DNA of 64,000 bases. It comes from Yuukianura sp. NJ FZ-2021 (taxonomy: Eukaryota). Shown piece after piece: positions 8,599 through 49,366 of the stretch. The stretch is from contig CM102287.1 of the NCBI GenBank assembly GCA_046563655.1, positions 10,044,001 to 10,108,000 on the forward strand. The letters are read 5' to 3'. The position numbers and the translations under genes are program-made. The first letter of the stretch is position 1, and each line of letters opens with the position of its first letter. The notes below the pieces were generated by a model. It ran no database searches. It saw only the letters and a program-made list of their open reading frames with translations, and had not been told where the DNA came from.

Positions 8599-10833
8599 TC
8601 AGCGAAGGGCCCACCCTGCTAAGATTGCCACAAACGTTGTCGCCATGACGACGTGTCCCTGCAGTCCCCCTGTTGCAGCAGTGGAGCCACCCATAGCTTT
8701 GGTTGAGTTGGCCAGAGCCTGATTGAGGGCCCTTAGCAAGGGGTACTTGAGTCCACAGTTGCCCAGGAAGTCGTCAGTATCTACTGACCAAACCATGAAG
8801 CCCTTAAGGCCCCTCTTCACCCCAAATTCCACCTAACAAATCAACACAACAACTTTTACAATACGCTCCCTCAACAATCAAAACTTTGGACACAACAATA
8901 GAATCGTAAAAGTTGAAATTTGTGGCACGTAGCCAAGGGCCCTTGCATTAAGGGCCCATGGGTACTTGACCTTTGAAATTGACCCAGTGGGGTAACTTAC
9001 TTTGCGCTGAATACTGAGTGGATCGTCGTAAGTCACCCACTTGTCACTGTCACGAATGAAGGGCACTTGGCCTTCGTCGTCCCAAAACTTTTCCCAGCCG
9101 GGGTTCGAGTCCAGCTCTCGGCAAATCTTAAAAAAAAAAAATTAAAAATTTGGTTTTTCGAAATTTTATATTCTAATTTTTCCTAATTATTGACCTCGTT
9201 GTATCCTAGAAATCCGTCTTCTTTTGTAAAGGGCCCTTGAAATCCTGTTGGATTCGCAGGAAGACCAAGACCGTTGTGCGACTGTGCAGAACCGTTGTTC
9301 TTTTCGTGTACGTGTTCATGCGTGTTTGCGTGTACGTGTTCATGCGTATTTGCGTGTACTTCATGCGTGTTTGCGTGTTTGAGCAAAAACGTTCTGCCGT
9401 AGAACGGAACGCCAAGGACCAGTTTGTTGGCTGGTACGCCTGCGCTGAGGAAATAGTCGATGGATTCTGTGACGTCGTGGGAGGAGCCATGCAACGGAGC
9501 GTTGTGATTGGTCAGCTGATCCCACGCACCGTGATAGTCATAGCACATTACGTGAAAGTGATCTAACACGGCAGCAAGTTCGGGCAGTTCGTACGCCGCG
9601 GCGGCGAGTGTCGTCGATGCTGAAACGGCCGCGGTGAGAAGCAGTTCGAACGGCTTAAAAGCTTGACGAAGTTCCTTGAAGTTCAAAATTTGTTTTCAAA
9701 ATTCAAAAATTTAAATATTGAAAATTCCAAGTTCAAAATTTGAAAATCCTGCCTGCATTAAAACAGTGAAGAGTTTTCTGTCTTCGGGAACACCACCGCG
9801 ATCTGTTGGAAACTCCCAGTCAAAATCAAGTCCATCAAAGTTGTGTTTCCTTTTCAAAAAATCCAAAATCTTCAAAAACCGAAACTTTTTTTTTTCAAAC
9901 TTTTCAAAATTTTGAAAATGTACCTCACAAATTCTAATACAGATTGGACAAACACTTTTCTAGAGTCATCAGTTGCTACCATTTGAGAGTACTTTGCACT
10001 GCCTTCATTCCAGCCACCAATGGCCACAAGGACCTTCAAGTGGGGGTACTTATTACGGAGGGCAGTGGCCTTGCTGTACCAGCCTATGAAACATTTCCAA
10101 ATTTCGAAATTCAAAATTCAAAAAACTTCAAAATTTTAATTTTTTGACCTTTGCCATAATCTTCTTCTAGATCCAAATAAGGGTCCATGGACTGAATAGT
10201 GTTAGTGTCGTTGTTGAGCCCTGCGAATGCGTAGACAAGGTGTGTGCAGAGTGCAGGGTCAAAGTGCCCTTGAAGGTCAAAGGCCCCCTCCCCTGCTCTG
10301 TACGTCGCCCAAGTACCCACGTAGCACACAACAACTTTCCCGTGACCTTTGACATTCAAAAAAAATCATTCAGCAAAAACTTCACCAAAAAATGAAATTG
10401 AGATTTAAAAAAATGTTAAATTCAAAAACCCATTGGATTAAAATTTCGTTTTGTAAAAGAATTGAAGATTAATTAGACGCTTAGTTAAGATCCGTAAATT
10501 GTGGTAGTTGTAAAATTTAAAGTTTAAATTTTTTTGTAAGATTTTAAAAATTTGAATTTGGTCACCGCTTGCCGCCATTTTGGAGTCGTCTGCTGCTTCA
10601 GTTCCCGATCGTGCCAGTAATGTTTGCACAACCAGGAAACATAGGACCTCTCTGACCCAGAGGTCAACTCTACAAAATCACAAAAATTCAAAAATTTAAA
10701 ACCTCAAAAATTCAAAAAACAAAAAATTCCTTTAAAACGTAAATGTACTTTGTGTACTTTTTGTTGTGTATTTGTTCTAATTTGCAAAAATGTGAATGTA
10801 AACTTACGGGTTTTTGAGCTTTGAGTAAAACAT
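8599..10833 (-). CDS. GH18 chitinase (Cht2-like), multi-exon, with hydrophobic C-terminus
   Basis: Exons give KVVVCYVGTWATYR, CTHLVYAFAG, LKVLVAIGGWNEGS, the intact catalytic FDGLDFDWE, MCYDYHGAW, KLVLGVPFYGRTF, WVTYDD and GFMVWSVDTDDF. The probable first exon is 10808-10833. Confidence 0.93.
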
Positions 10834-25300: not shown

Positions 25301-27365
25301 ACGATTGGAGGTGACGGATCGATGCATTTGGATACAATTGCTTCCCATGCAGAAAAAACAATGGAGGCTCAAAGTGAATTTGTCATGACCAAACCACTTT
25401 TGCGCGGAAGAGAACAGGTAAGATCAAAATCAAGGTCAAGTTTATCCAAAACGAGGTCAAAGGTTAAACTTTTTTTCATTTTTATAGGTAGATACGTATG
25501 ACGTTGGACCGGTCACTGCTGCTGCTCTGGATTCGTTCGGCCGACGATTTTTTACGGCCCATACGAACGGAGTGATCAAAGCCTGGAATTTTTACAACGG
25601 AAGAAACTTGTACAATTTGTACAAACCGCTCAACAATAAGCCAATCTGTGACATGACCTACATCACGGTCAACGAAACGCATCGGTACCTCGTCACGGTG
25701 GGATGGGATCGTCGTGTCGTAGTTTACATTGATACTCAGGTCAGGAGGTCAAGGTCAACAAGTTTGAAAACTTTTTTTGAATTTTGAATTTTGAAAACTT
25801 TTTATGTGTGTAGGGTCCAGAAGTTTTAGCTCACAGTGGCCTACCCGACCCGCCGCTGATTTTTAGTGACGAAAATGGAAATCATGAAGATGATGTTTGG
25901 GCTGTGAGCTTTGGATATCCACAGTTACTGGCCTCGGGTGACTACAGCGGTCGGCTTCTTGTTTGGAACATCAATTCTGGACGAGTTGTAGCCAATTTGA
26001 AAGTAAGTTTCTTGAAAATTTGAAATTGAAGTTTTAAATTTTGAAGTTTGTTTCTCTCTTTTTAGCCAAATAAGTGCCAGGACAAGAATTCTCTCAAAGA
26101 CACTTTCATCACTGCATTGACTTTTTTTGAACATCGGTGGCACAACAGGAAAACGACGTACCTCATTTCCGCTGGGCCGTTTCATCTCATTCACATTTGG
26201 AGAGCCAATACAACGCGAGAACTGAACGTTGGATCTGTTGGTTGGATTTGCCCATGCGCACTGCCATCTGATTCGATCACGGCCATGTTAGTTAACTTTT
26301 TCAAGTTTTTAGAACAAGAAAAACTAGAAAACTTTTGGGAAAAACTAAATTTTGCTTTGAAACTTAACAGGAAGACGTCCTTGGCCAATTGCAATTTGGT
26401 AACGGGAGATACGAGTGGATGTGTTTCGATTTGGGAAATGGAAGACAGACTCGGAGATACGGAACCCACCGAGTGGTTTTCAAAAGACCAAAAAGTTGGC
26501 GGCAGAAATCGGTTGACGATGTATCACCGCGGAAGTGTCACTGACCAACAGTTGGATCCCAACGAACAAGGATATGGTAGAGGACCAACACAATTGAGGC
26601 TTCTACGCACTTGGAAGTGTCATGTCGACGGTTTCGCTGCACTTGAAATCTGTGAAACTTATGGACTCATCGCCACCGGAGGGAGAGACTGTTCTGTTCG
26701 AATTTGGGACATGCAGGGTAAGTTTCAGATTTGAAAAACGTTTTTGAATTCAGAATTTTTAAGTTTTTTGAGTTCAAAATTCTAAGTTTTTTTTTGAAAC
26801 AGGGCAATACTTGGGCTATCTTGGACAGGAAGCTCGTTGGCACGTTGGTGACACTTTGTCATATCAAAAATGGTTTCCACGTGACGTCATTTTGGACATG
26901 AAGAGAATTCGAGGTCACCACATTTTCAAGCAAGCGGATCCACCGAAAATGGCGATTGAAGTTGCAGCAGAAAGGAAAGCCAAAGGAATCGTACGTGAAC
27001 ATTTTCAAATTCAAAAAATTTTGAACTCAGAATTTTGAAAAAAAAAATACTTTGAATTTGAATTTCAGGACCAAAAGCATCACCACCATCTTTCTGACCG
27101 TGAAGTTACTTCGATGGCCTACAGATACCAGAGTCTTGGAAATCTGAATTTTGTGACACAGACGTGGTTCATGCCTGACACTCCGGTTGGACCACATCGA
27201 CGAATGGGTGACAGACCTTCGATGAGTGACCTCGTAGAAGTTCCTGGAACTGTTCCACGCAAGGTCAAAGGTCACAAGTACGAAAGCAAAGACGACGTCA
27301 GAGCCTGTGCTCAAGCTAGACTTCAATTCAAGAAGAAAGGAGCAACTGTGCCTGGAAAACGTTAA
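22379..27365 (+). CDS. EF-hand plus WD40-repeat protein (WDR49/WDR64/WDY-like), many short introns
   Basis: Acidic N-terminus, EF-hand-like LFTKIDTFRVGKITWDDFCDFLQ, then WD repeats (AAGGLDRLVWVWN, CTDKVIRIWT, VTVGWDRRV, IATGGRDCSVRIWD, YLGQEARW). Confidence 0.8.
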
Positions 27366-29776: not shown

Positions 29777-31606
29777 ATGCTGCTGAAATCCAGTTTTGGT
29801 CAACTATTGACTTTGTTAGTTCTGTCCTGCGTCTTCCTAAGGTCAGAGGGCGACACTTGTACACCAATCGTTGAAAGCCTAATCGAGAGACTCGGCGGAT
29901 GTGACTCCGTGACATGTCATACTGGACTGAGCCAGAAAACTTGCGAAGATATTGGAGCCGTTCTGGAAGAGGGAGCTGCGATGTGCGGATGTTGTCCAGG
30001 ATGTGTCAAGTACCAACTGAGTAAGATCTAAAAATCATAAATAAATTTTTAGTTATGTGTTAGAAGTTAGTTTATAGCTAAAAGTGTTAATAATTACTTT
30101 TCAGAGTATCTTGAAGAGTGTGATAAATGTGACGAAAAGTATGACTATGATCCGGCATGTACTGACCAGCTCATTTGTCCCATTCTGAAGTGCTGTCCAC
30201 GGGGCCTAGAATGCTTCCACACGGGGTTCAAAGAAATGTGTGTCCCGATGCCTAAGAAACCCGATTGCACTAATAAATGTTTCGTCAAAAGATCACTAAT
30301 TGAATACGAAAATGAATTGTACCAACCGCCACAACTCCGAAACCTTCCAAGCTGTAACGAAGATGGTACGTTTGCTCCAGTCCAATGCAAAGGAACCAAA
30401 AGTGAAGGAGACTGCTACTGCGTCGACGAATGTGGCAAGAGAACGTTCGGACGAGCACTGTACGAAAATGCAGCAAACATGACGTGTGGTAAAGTTTTGT
30501 CCAATTTTGAATTTTCTCCTTCCGCTCCGATAAAACATAGTTGTTGAGAGTTCGTTGATTTTGAAAATTCCAGGATGCTCCACGTTGGTTCACAATCTTC
30601 GAAAAAAGGGCCAAATCGCCACAATTCACTGTACGGAGGATGGAGATTTTGAGCCTCTGCAATGTGACACGGATGTAAATCTTTAGAATTCTGAATGTTA
30701 AAAACTAATTTTAAAGGTTAGTAACTAAATTCATCTTACCAATTTAGAGCGGCCTTTGCTACTGCGTGGATGAAAAGACTGGAAAAACGACTGGAGAAGT
30801 TCTGCCGGAAAATCAGTTTCGGCTTCTCCCTTGCTTCAACGCTTCGGACGAAAATTTTTCAAGTGGGGCAAACTATCTTCGTGTTTGCGAAAGCGAGTGG
30901 GCGGCTGCACAAAAAGTGACGATTGAAGGAGCGATTCATGGACTCAAGTACACTCATACAGCACTTCAATGTGACTTTGACGGTGGATATGCTCCAGTAT
31001 ACTGGGACATGGTGGACACCGTTGGCCAGGATCGTTGTGTCCATCGCTCTGGAGATACACTGGGCAACTACTTCAGATCACACGCTGAAGCGCCTGTCAT
31101 GGACTGCAGTAATTTCAAAATCTGAAAAAAACAAGATTTCGTTATAAAAAAAAACTTACAAACTGTTTTTTGAATTCAGTTTTTCTAAAGACAAGTAACT
31201 TGTTTTGTAGATTGTGCTCGTGACAGCGTTTTCAGAGTTCCGTTTCGCGGAACTTGTCAACAGGAAAACAGGCCAACGAGTACGACAGTATTTCAGGAAG
31301 CTGCTCCAGGCAGTTACAAACCCTATGAATCTGATCAGACAAATGCTTGGTGTGTAGACTTGGACGGCGTAAGATTTTTCAAAATCAATCTCAAATTCAA
31401 AAAAAAAAAGTTCAAAGGTTAACTTAATTTTTGAATTTTTTGTTACATAGTATCCGTATGGTCCAACCATACCGAAAGAATTGATATGCTGTCTTGAAGG
31501 TAGCCAAACCTGTGACGATGCTGATTGGTGTGAGGCTGATCCTGATCAAAACAGACCGTACAAAATCCTGGACTGTTCTCGCTATGAATTAGGACGACAT
31601 TACTAG
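29777..31606 (+). CDS. Secreted cysteine-rich thyroglobulin type-1 repeat protein
   Basis: Signal peptide, then repeated Tg1 motifs: PSCNEDGTFAPVQCKG..CYCVD, CTEDGDFEPLQCD..CYCVD, CDFDGGYAP, AWCVDLDG. The last exon is 31451-31606. Confidence 0.88.
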
Positions 31607-38875: not shown

Positions 38876-42509
<3,634 letters not shown>

Positions 42510-44061: not shown

Positions 44062-46188
44062 ATGAGTGACCCTCCTGTTGCACGGGGTCAACATTCGGAA
44101 GGAACGTCCACCAAATCCATGTCTGTATTTGTATGGCAACCTGGAGATTCGACCTTCCAGAACGGAGGTCATACAAAGGTCATTACTTTTCCAGCAGTTA
44201 CACTCGTAGTGGTAGCATTTGTGTTCATAGTCGTCGCTTTCTCCACTCCAGCTTGGCTCGAAACGGACGGAGAACTTCCGGAACGGGAACCAAAGTTCAT
44301 CAAAATCGGTAAGTTTCAATTTACGCATCCTATAATTAATTTTTTTTTTTGTGAATACTCAATTAATTCAAATCGCATTCATTGGTTAATTTCATCTTTG
44401 TTGCTCATTCAGGGTTGTGGGAAGGGTGCTTTGATCGTTTACAAGACGATGGACACCAGTACGACAACGTCATTACTGGATGTTGGTACTTATTGGCAGA
44501 GGAACTCTACCACCTCAACGACCTCATTTTTCAACGTAAGACCATTTTCCGCATCTAAAAATCAATGCTCGGTCCAGATCAATTTTAACCCATAACATAA
44601 GACGAGGTCAGGTCAATCGAAAACATCCACAATTCGTTTTTTTTTGTCAACAACCTGTCCGGCCCCACCCTCCTAGTATATCCATACCCATTGTTGTGCT
44701 TTTACTCTGTCCACATTCCATTCCACCACCCATTCACCTGTATACCTGTTGGTACCGTTGTTTGGATTCTACAGATCTTAAGCCCTATACCCACCGACGA
44801 CCCTCCCTGGGTCTTTCTCTGCAATTCCAATTTTAGAGCGAGTCATAAACAGTCGAAATGCACAACAAATTAAATATTTCACACCCTTTTCCAACGTTCT
44901 TAACGTTCCGCAATTAACAATTATGATTCAGCTCCATCTCTAACATGTTACTAATTCCGTGTGCAGTTTTTGAATTAAGGGAATTGTAATTCGTCGTAAC
45001 TCTCTTTTCTTGTCGAGTGACACTTCCAACCGTTTTTATCTCTGCAGTCACTCTTTGTCATCAGTCGAGGTGACAAGAGGTCAAGTAAGGTCGGATTAAG
45101 TCTAATTTAGTAATTTATTTTTAAAAAGTGGGATATTTTACTAGTACTTTTTGTTGAAAAGCGGATTTGGAAAGGTATGCATTCTTACCGTGCAGATTAC
45201 CCTGTCACTTTTCACCCTCACCGGACACATCCAATTCGGTCCATCATGATGGACGACTACTTGGACTCTTACAATCCCATTCGACGCACAATGTCCGGAA
45301 GGTGTGGCCTTGGAATCTTCGTCCTAGCTACACTTCTTATTACAATTGCCTTTTCTACCCCATATTGGCTCGAAAGTGACCCCAGAATTGTGGGCTCAAA
45401 GTTTGAAAAGCTTGGACTTTGGACGCATTGTTTTCGGTCCTTGCCGGACCCTTATGTCCAAACCCTCAATCGATTCTATTCTGGGTGTCGATGGATTTTT
45501 GATCCCTTTACAACAGGCTACTCCGAAATCCGTGGATTTTTGGTTCCACGTAAGAAACGTCTTTAAAACGTTTATGAAATTTCGAATATTTTCAAATTTT
45601 GAACCTTATGCTGTTACGATTGGAAATTATGGACATAATTTTGATCTGGACTGAGCAGGCTTCTTAATTTCAAAATCAATTTTCGAAATGTTTAAAATAA
45701 ATTTTTCTGTTTTCAGCTTTCTTCGTTGCAGTTCAATTTTTCTTTACGATTTGCTTCATTACGCTCCTCATGGTTTGCATCCTGGTGCCGATGTACTTGC
45801 TATGTTTCGGACCGGACCATCAGTACTACGTACTTCTCATCAAAGTCATCGGGATGATCCTCATCTTCTCAGGTTAGTCACAAAGTGATTCATAACCGAA
45901 ACCTAACTTTATTACTGTGATTTATTATTAATTTGTGTCTCTTTTTGTTGCTTTTTAGCATTCTTTGGGTCTGTGGCGGTGATTGTGTTTGGAGCAATGG
46001 GGGACAGCAGACACTGGATGCCTGACTGGCAGAACAACTACTTGTCCTGGTCATTTGCTCTGGCTGTTGTGGGGGTCGTTTGTGAATATGTGGCTGGGAT
46101 TTTATTTTTGGTCGAAGGCAGAGTTCAAGCTCGCAAGAGGAAACTACGTGAGTCTCAGTCGGCCTATACAATGGAGACGAAGGCCTGA
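44062..46188 (+). CDS. Claudin isoform A (Kune-kune-like N-terminal half); exons 44062-44308, 44413-44535, shared 45717-45872, 45959-46188
   Basis: TM1 followed by AFSTPAWLETDG..PKFIKIGLWEGCF..YDNVITGCWYLLAEELYHL, the claudin W-GLW-C-C signature. The phase-1 donor at 44535 fits the shared acceptor at 45717. Confidence 0.7.
45246..46188 (+). CDS. sinu: Claudin isoform B (Sinuous-like); exons ~45246-45549, 45717-45872, 45959-46188
   Basis: RRTMSGRCGLGIF...WLESDPRIVGSKFEKLGLWTHCFRSLPD...GCRWIFDPFTTGYSEIRGFL closely resembles Drosophila Sinuous. The start could be at 45177, 45246 or 45291. Confidence 0.88.
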
Positions 46189-47391
46189 CAAGAAGGGGAC
46201 TTAAGGGCTCCTCTGTCTCCAAGGACAAGACATGAACATGACGACGACCCTTCGGAGGACCCGCTTGATTTAACAATAGAAGTTCATCGTCCTATCAAAA
46301 CTGTATCTTCATCTCTGGTCACAGAACTGTAAAATGATCCATTCCAAAACTAATTTAATTAGATTGACGTAAGGCAGCTAACTTATACTGAAAAGTTTTT
46401 AACACAGGAATCTCATTTCAAAAAAATTCCGTCCTCTCTGTAACGTAATGACACTAAGAAGTACTTACTGTCATCCTATTTTGCTAAATGGACCCCCTAG
46501 CGATAATTAAGCAATTAAGTACCCTATTTATCCGGCACGACGTACTAAATTGACTTAAGTTTAACGTCGGACGGACGTTGATTCATATGGACCAAAAAAA
46601 AACAGGGTTAATTTTATTTTTCTAGGGACTGTCCCATTGTGTGCCGCTTTTTAGTTGTAAAATTGTAATTGTTGATGTGAGTAGATTTTTAATGGTTTAA
46701 TTTAGATTTAGGTCACACCATAACCCATAACTTATATCCAACAATTTATACTGCCAGTACTAGTTTACGTACCGCCACCGGTGACTAAGCTTTTGTAAAA
46801 CTTGAAGTTGTGTTAGTACTAATTTAAGCTTTAAAAGTGAGCTAACCTAATTAGTATTCCATCCATTTCTTTCACATTTTTGACACCTTCCCGGTATTTA
46901 TAATACTTTTATCATGCAAAAGTTTGAATTAATCAAAGGAAGCAATTATTACAGAATAAACTTAGCCTATTAAACGTTTATTCGACGGAATGTTAATGTT
47001 TGCTATAAAATTGACGCAAATATTCCACTATTTCTTTGTAGTAGTTAGACTTAAATTTTAATAACTTGGAGAATAACAATTGGCGCAATGTTTTAATGCG
47101 CGAAAATGTAAAAGAACGTTGCCACCAAGATCCCTCCATATCTCGAGCCACGTAGTGTAAAGGCCTTAGCCTAAGGCTAATGTTAGGAAGGGAGTTGTAG
47201 GGTCTCAGACGCCATCAGGGCCCTTTAGGAGCTTAACGTTCTCAGGAGTTTGTTAGAAAGTGGAAGGAGTATTTCCAGGAACGGTAAGAAAGTACATATT
47301 AAACCGGCAAGGTTCTAAGCTTCCTTTCAACGTGGTTACTACAGAAAAGTTACTTTTAACATTTTGAATTTAAGATTTTGTAGTTTGGACG

Positions 47392-48233
47392 ATGGCTGGT
47401 ACTGCTCATGTTGGCCATGATCCCTTCATGTTGTATTATTCAAAGTACAGAAAAAGAATCCGCCCGCTGTTGTACGCCCAAATCAAACTTTTGGAAAAAT
47501 TCAAAGTTAAAGAATGCTTCCAGAGGAAGGCTGCTCACATGCTGGACGATATGAGGGGATACTATAATCAATTGCGTGAATCGAGGACATGTATGAGACT
47601 CCAAGGTAAGCAGAAATATATTAAACTATTAAAGATTAATATATTTTGTTAAGTTATTTTACATTAACAATAACATGTGAAATTGTTAGCGTGAAAAGGT
47701 TTTTTGGTTATAAAAGCGAACTAGTCTGTTTTAGAAATTTTTTTTGAGTGACAAGACCTATGACAACCCAAAAAAACGGATCTACGGTAACTCCCGGAGG
47801 TCAGAGGTCAACTCAAACATTTCCCACGAGCCTTTCTTCGAGTTAACCAGAACAGACAAGTAAAAACAGACTAGATCGCTTTACTAAACCGGTTTTTGTG
47901 TTGCATTTCGCAGAGGACAAATGTTTGGAAGACGACGATCCTATGGAAATAGAACTGTACGATGATGTTGTTGACTTACATCATATATTGCAGATGCAGA
48001 TGGGCAAGGCTGTATGGAGGTTTCAAGATGACATGACACGTATTCGATTTCGAACATCAATACCGACAACACGTATTGATCGAGAAAACACTTTGGCTGA
48101 GGATGACCCGTGGGATCATTGTGAAAGAATGATGCGACAAATCGATGAATGGAAGAAGTTGGGCCTCAGCGGAATACGTCGGCACGCGGACCCATACGAC
48201 ACTCCATATACTACTGCAATCCGAAGCTTATAA
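47392..48233 (+). CDS. Uncharacterised protein, paralog B; exons 47392-47605, 47914-48233
   Basis: YRKRIRPLLYAQIKLLEK...YNQLRESRTC aligns with paralog A (YRGKVRPPLYAVIKMLEK...YNQLRQRKEC). The intron position and phase are the same. Confidence 0.7.
47706..47890. mobile_element. Small MITE-like element in the intron of paralog B
   Basis: Inverted ends aaagcgaactagtctgtttta (47713-47733) and aaaacagactagatcgcttt (47863-47882). Confidence 0.55.
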
Positions 48234-48998
48234 GCTTCTAGTCTTAAGTGTCGCCGTGGGTTGGGGATCATTGGTTTGAGTGTTGGGGTTTGAGTAAACA
48301 AAAGATGGATCCACTCTTCCACTGCACTAGGGTCTAAAATAAACACAATTAAAATAATAGAAATCTGTAAATTTAACCAGACTTTAACCGGCGGAGGAAT
48401 ACAAGAATTTTGATACCTTGTATGCCAAGATTAATTGACGCATAATTAAGTTAATTGAGTTTAAAGGTGGAACTAGTTTGCACTAAACTCCGTTTAACTT
48501 TAACCTGCAATGGTCGAACTGGCCATTAAACGGGTTAAGTTATTTGAAGTTTGACTCTATAGAATACCCCGCCATGCTCTTCCGCAGGTTTCAATACGTT
48601 GCTTGCCCTTCTACGTCGATCCTACGATTTTTGCGCTTTTAAGAGTTGCACCAATTAAAAATGACGCTTTCGGTGCGTTAAAGCAGAGGGAAACTTAAAC
48701 TAAAAGGGGTCTAGACATTAAACATTAAATGAGAATTTAGCCATTTAGCCAAAAGAGGAGGGGAAAATGAGAAATTGAATACACTTACCCTATTTAAACC
48801 TTTATTCTACGGAATGTTAATGTTTGTCTTTACAATTCTACTTGAGTATAACGCGGATTTTTCTGTAGAAAGTGGAATATTTTAGCTTGAGTGGGTAGAC
48901 TAGTTCATGCAAGTGTCGAGCATGGGAAGTTCCCGTTCGTATCGCCTTGGATCTGCGCCATCTTGGATTCGGCTGAATTAGGAACTTCGCTTAATTTT

Positions 48999-49366
48999 CT
49001 AGAATGCTGCCGATGTGGTTTTGTTGTTGGCATAAAACTGCTGGGCAGAGATGAGGATGGTGATGAGGTACATGCAGGCGGCAATCCAGCAGTTGTAGGC
49101 ACTGGCAGAAAATGCTTGATCACGGTCACTATTGAACTTGGTTAGATCCGTATAGTGTTCTTCCAGGGAAATATCTTCTACGAGAGCTACGCTCTGGATG
49201 TAGAAGAACAGCCCCATCAGGATCTAAATAAAAACGACAGTTCCAGCACATTCGTCTGGATAACGTTTCTATGATATAATACGATACAAAGACATACCAA
49301 TTGAACAAATCCCCAACCGCTGAGGAGTAAGCAGCACAGAGAAAGCTTTGGGCCACAGACTGGCAT
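48999..49366 (-). CDS. RNASEK: Ribonuclease kappa (V-ATPase subunit f); exons 49298-49366, 48999-49223
   Basis: MPVCGPKLSLCCLLLSGWGFVQLILMGLFFYIQSVALVED...AYNCWIAACMY; 97 aa with two TM segments. Confidence 0.94.

Follow-up and report, generated by a model that had tools for sequence, protein, structure and literature searches.

A sinuous-type claudin gene and the open frame behind its stop codon

We analysed a 64,000-nucleotide (nt) stretch of the Yuukianura sp. NJ FZ-2021 genome (GenBank assembly GCA_046563655.1, contig CM102287.1, positions 10,044,001 to 10,108,000 of the forward strand; hereafter the window, numbered from its first letter), with emphasis on a claudin gene whose stop codon is followed by a long open frame in the same reading phase. 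The claudin matches inside the window are confined to positions 44104–46263, and all features of this gene described below lie on the forward strand. Sequence comparison with related genes indicates that the stop codon—a TGA followed by C—is probably subject to programmed readthrough, which would yield a longer form of Sinuous whose C-terminus is of the class I PDZ type.

The body of the claudin is encoded by three exons. Exon 1b, of the sinuous type (MMDDY...MSGRCG...GFLVP), spans positions 45246–45549 and ends in a phase 1 donor (c|gtaaga). Its translation matches Pfam Claudin_2 (PF13903) with an E-value of 7.9e-16 and 58.8 bits against a cut-off of 29.1, carries the W-GLW-C-C signature of the first loop (PYWL...KLGLWTHCF...GCRW) and is 64% identical to a Culicoides 'claudin domain-containing protein 1'. 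Exon 2 (P-FFVAVQFFFT...ILIFS, 45717–45872) gave tblastn matches with the related metagenome loci L001, L002 and L004 and with the database proteins P0004 and P0009. Exon 3 (45959–46185) encodes transmembrane segments (TM) 3 and 4 together with the cytoplasmic tail ending in ...SAYTMETKA, and likewise matches Claudin_2 (1.5e-12, 48.2 bits, same cut-off). Hydrophobic stretches across the three exons, read by eye from the translations, fit four membrane spans.

Querying with exon 3 returned nine longer proteins, the top named match being from Allacma fusca (Collembola) at 79% identity; the identity of the exon to P0004 and P0002 ranges between 79% and 85%. Proteins from Timema and Culicoides were also among the matches, both of them ending in ...ETKA, and P0009, the Culicoides homologue, which matches exon 3 at 57% identity, has many relatives named 'claudin family member sinuous' or 'sinu'. 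Because of the Claudin_2 scores and these sinuous-named relatives, we call the window gene a predicted sinuous orthologue of the Claudin_2 family, from a springtail-like hexapod—an assignment made by profile and similarity matches. Among 120 relatives of the Culicoides protein examined, 37 end in ETKA and 33 in ESKA, and the termini of brachyceran flies have diverged (ELVRG, MMHGGK).

The last coding exon, ending in ...RKLRESQSAYTMETKA, runs directly into a TGA at 46186–46188 (...ACG AAG GCC TGA CAA GAA...), such that the putatively leaky first stop and its context, TGA-CAA, occupy positions 46186–46191. The same frame then stays open for 47 codons (46189–46329; QEGDLRAPLSPRTRHEHDDDPSEDPLDLTIEVHRPIKTVSSSLVTEL), reading QEGDLR...SSSLVTEL, up to a TAA at 46330–46332 that is followed by A. 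This arrangement is exactly the one described in the first-pass annotation of the window, and the extension is also, as stated there, richer in guanine plus cytosine (GC) than the untranslated region (UTR) beyond it, with a GC fraction of 0.47 against 0.35 in the next 300 nt. The extension is acidic, rich in Pro and Ser and devoid of in-frame Met, and its last four codons (46318–46329) encode V-T-E-L, a predicted class I PDZ-ligand-like motif of the pattern [VS]T.[LI]. A search with the extension alone found no longer protein and no Pfam family. In 5000 mononucleotide shuffles, a frame open over 47 codons occurred with P = 0.041 when the composition of the extension plus downstream sequence was used, and with P = 0.080 when that of the extension alone was used. 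The significance of the open frame therefore comes from the comparison with relatives, and not from the window by itself.

Stop context, extensions and coding signature in relatives

A pattern scan of metagenome contigs yielded 24 related loci. In each of them, the frame of the exon 3 match was followed to its first stop and past it to the next one. The last exon of L004 was located separately because of an extra intron of approximately 440 nt (L004:974–1414), which lies between ...KQKK and MRES... and leaves a last exon of only 14 codons before the leaky stop. The window and loci L001–L004, with a claudin ending in METKA, were assigned to group A. All four metagenome members of this group have a TGA followed by C and an open in-frame extension of 35–95 codons: TGA-CAAGAG with 49 codons ending in SLVTSL in L001, TGA-CTAGAG with 35 codons ending in VSVTML in L002, TGA-CTAAAG with 72 codons ending in HMVTTL in L003 and TGA-CAACGA with 95 codons ending in PTSTEI in L004, compared with TGA-CAAGAA and 47 codons ending in SLVTEL in the window. 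TAA is also the second stop in L001–L003, and in the window, L001 and L002 the next base is A. Moreover, three distinct database proteins (P0003, P0006 and P0011) run on past METKA for 94, 127 and 39 residues, with VTTL, STEI and STEI as their respective ends; as predicted products, they show the frame to be open in three more organisms. An open extension ending in [VS]-T-x-[LI] is thus present in all eight sequences, with VTEL, VTSL and VTML found once each, VTTL twice and STEI three times. The motif always stands at the extreme C-terminus, which is the sole invariant feature of the tail, whatever its length.

The database products P0003, P0006, P0010 and P0011 look like readthrough proteins by accident, as prokaryote-style gene callers take TGA as W on eukaryotic contigs—an artefact that offers a handy route to open frames behind TGA stops. 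Another protein, P0101 (insect-like, with TGA followed by A and a tail ...SEMFS), was left uncounted as it looks like translated UTR, and P0015, P0043 and P0088 were dropped on account of their junk tails.

Two more distant loci, L021 and L022 (group B, 46–53% identical in exon 3), both carry TGA-CAATTA, followed by 362 open codons ending in ESCF and 339 open codons ending in ESSF, respectively. Their tails (L021:481–1572 and L022:3256–4278) are 55% identical, with long identical blocks, e.g., SRHPRSVKVIHIQKRKTESYDYKQS, and a common end, ES[CS]F. No Pfam family match was found for either tail, and the L022 tail returned only sub-threshold look-alikes in the protein atlas, the best of them at 0.84. 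We regard the group B claudin as a candidate for a second, much longer readthrough product, with a virus-like stop context.

The other 18 loci (group C) are mostly intron-less, transcript-like sequences ending in PMEQRV, ERTV and the like, and their first stops are TAA (nine), TAG (six) or TGA followed by A (three). Their extensions span 2–55 codons, mostly around ten; none of the 18 has a long conserved extension, and two of them end in [ST].[VILF] by chance. TGA with C at position +4 is found in all seven extension-bearing DNA sequences (the window, L001–L004, L021 and L022) versus C at +4 in 0 of the 18 group C relatives; the conservation of TGA-C in related species was a check proposed in the first-pass annotation. 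The first residues after the stop are similar as well, i.e., QE, QE, LE, LK and QR in group A and QLA.GS in both L021 and L022.

Shuffle tests of the open frame gave P values of 0.002–0.008 for L003 and 0.002–0.014 for L004, and 0 of 5000 shuffles for both L021 and L022. The GC fraction is 0.47–0.56 in the extensions and 0.21–0.35 in the next 300 nt, with the drop falling after the second stop in seven of seven sequences. The closest pair, formed by the window and L001, is 91–96% identical at the protein level over exons 1b and 2, and synonymous differences affect 28 of the 47 conserved codons upstream of the stop. With so many synonymous differences, and with no computable NG86 value for the synonymous substitution rate (dS), the silent sites are close to saturated; NG86 returned a dS of -1 (saturated) for nearly all pairs, giving no ratio of nonsynonymous to synonymous rates (dN/dS).

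Past the second stop, the 3'UTRs of the window and L001 no longer align, save for one 12-mer. This patch (AGGAATCTCATT, window positions 46406–46417) is identical in L001 amid unaligned UTR and may be a regulatory site. Within the extension, which differs in length between the two by 6 nt, the two sequences share 20 of 39 aligned residues, 12 of which are written with different codons, and the differences by codon position are distributed 16:12:27 (P = 0.011). Over the last 16 codons, 11 residues are identical, eight of them with synonymous differences, with a distribution of 4:2:11 (P = 0.008), the controls being P = 0.15 for this block in frame +1 and P = 0.65 for the UTR. In the L021–L022 pair, 172 of 313 residues are identical, 112 of them with synonymous differences, and the distribution is 112:76:210 (P = 1e-15). 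The third-position excess in these two pairs speaks to the codon-level conservation that the first-pass annotation had suggested looking for, and the extension behaves like coding sequence against a saturated background. The tails of the more distant group A members align poorly, except for the end and a few patches, e.g., RPGSSKSFATTSGVG, common to L004 and P0006. Across these relatives, the frame is open, TGA-C is conserved and the extension and its end display conservation of the protein type.

Passage of the stop and the predicted docking tail

UGA-C has been reported to be the leakiest stop context and UGA-CA[A/G]N[U/C/G]A to be a known readthrough motif (PMC13278127, a 2026 preprint). 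Functional readthrough has been estimated to affect 5–6% of stop codons in Anopheles and Drosophila and found to be abundant in insects and a crustacean, with the conjecture that the same holds throughout Pancrustacea (Jungreis et al. 2016, PMC5100048). Readthrough extensions have also been reported to be disordered and rich in motifs, including predicted PDZ recognition sites (Pancsa et al. 2016, PMC4999894). The window gene, a readthrough candidate, resembles the readthrough genes of Drosophila and Anopheles described in PMC5100048 and PMC13278127 in its conserved TGA-C, the coding-type substitutions in its extension, the predicted disorder of the latter and its Pancrustacean host; it differs from them in being another gene from another hexapod class. 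It also shares with the cases covered in PMC4999894 a putatively disordered extension ending in a short linear motif, although those cases are predictions for other proteins, with no claudin among them ('claudin' occurs 0 times in the text). Readthrough in this springtail-like sinuous would be a well-supported new example of an already known type of recoding.

The proposed mechanism is as follows. Most ribosomes would stop at the UGA at 46186 and release the protein ending in ...METKA. Lying in a leaky UGA-C(A/U)A context, this codon would be decoded by a near-cognate tRNA in a fraction of cases, with the ribosomes concerned going on for 47 codons to the UAA-A stop. The added piece would evolve fast and probably form a disordered linker, with V-T-E-L, a motif resembling class I PDZ ligands, as its last residues. 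A single mRNA would thereby supply a short and a long Sinuous. The docking tail would be restricted to the long form, its presumed partners being septate-junction PDZ scaffolds. We infer both the passage of the stop by readthrough and its efficiency, along with the PDZ binding of the motif, from the features described above. Ribosomal readthrough is the simplest mechanism because in-frame Met starts are mostly lacking, neither a conserved donor nor a selenocysteine insertion sequence (SECIS) was found, and the context is leaky. The switch of the C-terminus from ETKA to VTEL by TGA-C readthrough, put forward in the first-pass annotation, has thus gained weight from the TGA-C in seven of seven DNA sequences, the frame open in all of them, the end pattern in eight of eight and the third-position bias.

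The tobacco mosaic virus type of readthrough context is stop-CAA-UUA. L021 and L022 share it as TGA-CAATTA, and the window, with a cellular gene and GAA instead of UUA as the next codon, shares only TGA-CAA. The UGA-CUAG of L002 and the CAA-UUA of group B match contexts from mammalian and tobamovirus work, respectively. The full UGA-CA[AG]N[UCG]A motif is present in L004, L021 and L022.

Several alternative explanations for the open frame deserve consideration. The stop could be bypassed by alternative splicing, from a donor upstream of the TGA (at 46148 or elsewhere) to an in-frame acceptor in the extension. The gtgagt at 46148–46153, which the first-pass annotation had offered as a way round the stop, is a good donor consensus, and a rare alternative C-terminal splice form has been reported for a Drosophila sinuous cDNA (PMC2172325). 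However, the GTGAGT lies inside the codons for R-E-S and is found in the window only, i.e., in one of five loci (CGAGAA, CGGGAG, CGAGAG and CGTGAA stand in its place in L001–L004), and there is no GT position in common over the last 45 nt before the stop; we therefore reject it as a cryptic donor and judge it to be ordinary coding sequence. Furthermore, the frame is open from the first post-stop codon in all seven DNA sequences and the residues right after the stop are similar—an excised segment would need neither—and METKA is conserved up to the stop itself. Splicing around the stop consequently strikes us as quite improbable. An independent small ORF (open reading frame) was likewise rejected: no in-frame Met exists in the extension of the window, L001 or P0011, and L002 has only one M, at position -2, so an AUG-started ORF is unlikely given that the extensions mostly lack in-frame ATGs. 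It could also be argued that the frame is a chance opening in an untranslated 3'UTR and that its similarity between species reflects regulatory sequence, as the P of 0.04–0.08 for the window alone, a 56-codon chance ORF in another, control frame of L001 and the conserved non-coding 12-mer further down the UTR might suggest. Against this stand the 72, 95, 339 and 362 open codons in relatives (with shuffle P values of at most 0.014 and as low as 0 of 5000), the third-position bias with synonymous differences beneath conserved residues, the GC drop exactly at the second stop in seven of seven cases and the length difference of just 6 nt between the window and L001, which together leave chance hardly credible. 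Finally, the conservation of TGA specifically, in seven of seven sequences, would also be expected if the UGA were recoded by selenocysteine insertion or by A-to-I editing of UGA to UGG. For the former, no SECIS or other Rfam match was obtained at E ≤ 1 in six loci, apart from one weak microRNA-like match in L022 (E = 0.027), or at E ≤ 5 in window positions 45900–49000, and the site would lie within a disordered tail rather than a redox motif; for the latter, no local double-stranded structure was found that could guide the enzyme, a distant pairing partner not having been searched for. Splicing and editing are thus both unlikely as bypass routes, and we give such other forms of UGA recoding the lowest probability of all the explanations discussed.

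A class I PDZ-binding C-terminus has the form x-[S/T]-x-hydrophobic-COOH. Pro, Ser, Thr, Gly and acidic residues abound in the tails, which span 35–127 residues; such a composition fits a disordered linker, and the long isoform would gain a scaffold-docking end; a PDZ function of the predicted tail motif is plausible. Many other members of the claudin family end directly in HTTI, HTDI, DSTV, GSTV, CSEV or QTDI, the last of these being the end of an unnamed 264-residue family member of Drosophila setifemur. The PDZ proteins Varicose, Discs large and Scribble are listed as septate-junction components in PMC8006247. The extension might nonetheless be read through with its conserved end serving some other purpose—a signal for trafficking, export from the endoplasmic reticulum, endocytosis or degradation, or a phosphorylation site. 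PDZ binding draws on a four-residue pattern only, chance matches to [ST].[VILF] occur in two of the 18 untranslated control tails, and upstream of the end there are runs of Ser/Thr along with a semi-conserved block, [VI]R[IV]..H[RP]P; in addition, a review warns that PDZ-ligand motifs need direct demonstration (PMC3879130). The placement of the conserved feature exactly at the C-terminus in eight of eight cases is, on the other hand, what a PDZ ligand requires, and the other family members that end directly in such motifs point the same way, so that we consider a purpose other than PDZ binding unlikely. The ELM class 1 pattern is looser than the class I rule used here. Under that pattern, ETKA itself could be a weak PDZ ligand, and the switch may therefore be between two ligands instead of from none to one.

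A number of observations weigh against programmed readthrough of TGA-C towards a PDZ-type end, or at least limit its reach. ETKA is strongly conserved over hexapods, and the short ETKA-ending form is therefore clearly the main functional product. Both the length of the extension (35–127 codons) and its sequence are poorly conserved; for the window–L001 pair, dN rises from 0.07 in the coding sequence to 0.48 in the extension, so that the tail is under clearly looser constraint than the body of the claudin. The third-position test is non-significant for the window–L002, window–L003 and L001–L003 pairs (P = 0.16–0.31), and the open frame of the window, taken alone, is only mildly unusual. The window and L001 fit UGA-CAA only, and not the full UGA-CA[AG]N[UCG]A motif, and no stable RNA structure was predicted after the stop (z = +1.49, with 187 of 200 shuffles folding at least as well). 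The W at the stop position of P0003, P0006 and P0011 reflects the code chosen by the gene caller, with TGA taken as W, and does not count as evidence of translation. The proposed PDZ binding, as noted, is read from a four-residue pattern. A look for transcript contigs of the ETKA group brought up none. In addition, none of sinu, kune, pck and CG10624 appears in the searched part of Supplemental Data S1 of the Anopheles and Drosophila catalogue (PMC5100048).

The words 'sinu', 'claudin', 'PDZ' and 'septate' have 0 occurrences in the main text of PMC13278127, and a literature search found no paper linking readthrough to sinuous, with Dunn et al. 2013 and the supplements of PMC13278127, which might list sinu, lying outside that search. 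Readthrough in Collembola received incidental mention only, and publications containing both 'stop codon readthrough' and 'claudin' look incidental as judged by titles and the beginnings of abstracts. Drosophila Sinuous (CG10624; Wu et al. 2004, PMC2172325), the orthologous four-pass septate-junction protein of the claudin family, has been described as a single isoform of 247 residues with a PDZ site on its ordinary terminus; in the window gene, by contrast, the ordinary terminus is ETKA and a clear [ST]-x-[LI] end appears only past the stop.

Alternative 5' modules and wider context

The first-pass annotation had also described two 5' halves for this claudin, and both proved to be real and splice-compatible. 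Besides exon 1b, the window contains an alternative 5' module in two parts. Part 1 (44062–44308), encoding TM1 and the start of extracellular loop 1, has in-frame ATGs at 44062 and 44119 and a phase 1 donor (g|gtaagt) after 44308; its Claudin_2 match (E = 1.3e-4, 22.3 bits) stays under the 29.1 cut-off, and residues 15–83 of the Allacma protein P0004 map onto it by tblastn. Part 2 (44413–44535; GLWEGCF...LNDLIFQ) lies between an acceptor (cag|g) and a phase 1 donor (c|gtaaga), and residues 80–120 of P0004 are 83% identical to it. Owing to its phase 1 donor, part 2 can join exon 2. Both 5' halves end in phase 1 with C|gtaaga, and L001 has an identical layout, with the same alternative module upstream of its own exon 1b. 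As either half is splice-compatible with exon 2, the four claudin forms envisaged earlier are possible.

Each 5' module, comprising TM1 and the first extracellular loop, has its own ATG. The Allacma model P0004 (361 residues) joins both modules in series, which looks like a mis-annotation. In a bee, the locus tags of a first-module-type gene and of sinu are adjacent (K0M31_013591 and K0M31_013592), and there are hints that the first-type 5' module derives from a neighbouring paralogue.

Septate-junction claudins are core barrier proteins, and their anchoring to cytoplasmic scaffolds is poorly understood. If the predicted readthrough is true, a conserved isoform with the only clear [ST]-x-[LI] end would provide anchored and free pools from one mRNA, and springtail gene models ending at ETKA, e.g., P0004, would miss an isoform. 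Comparative evidence for functional readthrough would be extended to springtail-like hexapods, a group outside the catalogues examined. While readthrough is unsurprising in a Pancrustacean, the case would be a clean and testable one, involving a core protein of the junction and a hexapod group not yet surveyed. More speculatively, and with rather less confidence than we place in readthrough itself, sinuous readthrough may be an old regulated switch in basal hexapods, retained by two or more lineages of the family: one would have the short VT.L/STEI tail, and another a tail of 340–360 residues behind a virus-like UGA-CAA-UUA. Termination efficiency, and not transcription or splicing, would then tune tethering to PDZ scaffolds, and with two first-loop modules, one gene could yield four junction proteins differing in sealing and anchoring.

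Elsewhere in the window there is ordinary eukaryotic gene content. Exon-sized ORFs match, in order, Glyco_hydro_18 (9186–9695, reverse strand), WD40 (26066–26731, forward strand), Thyroglobulin_1 (30071–30544, forward strand) and UDPGP, the UTP-glucose-1-phosphate uridylyltransferase family (41185–41850, forward strand).

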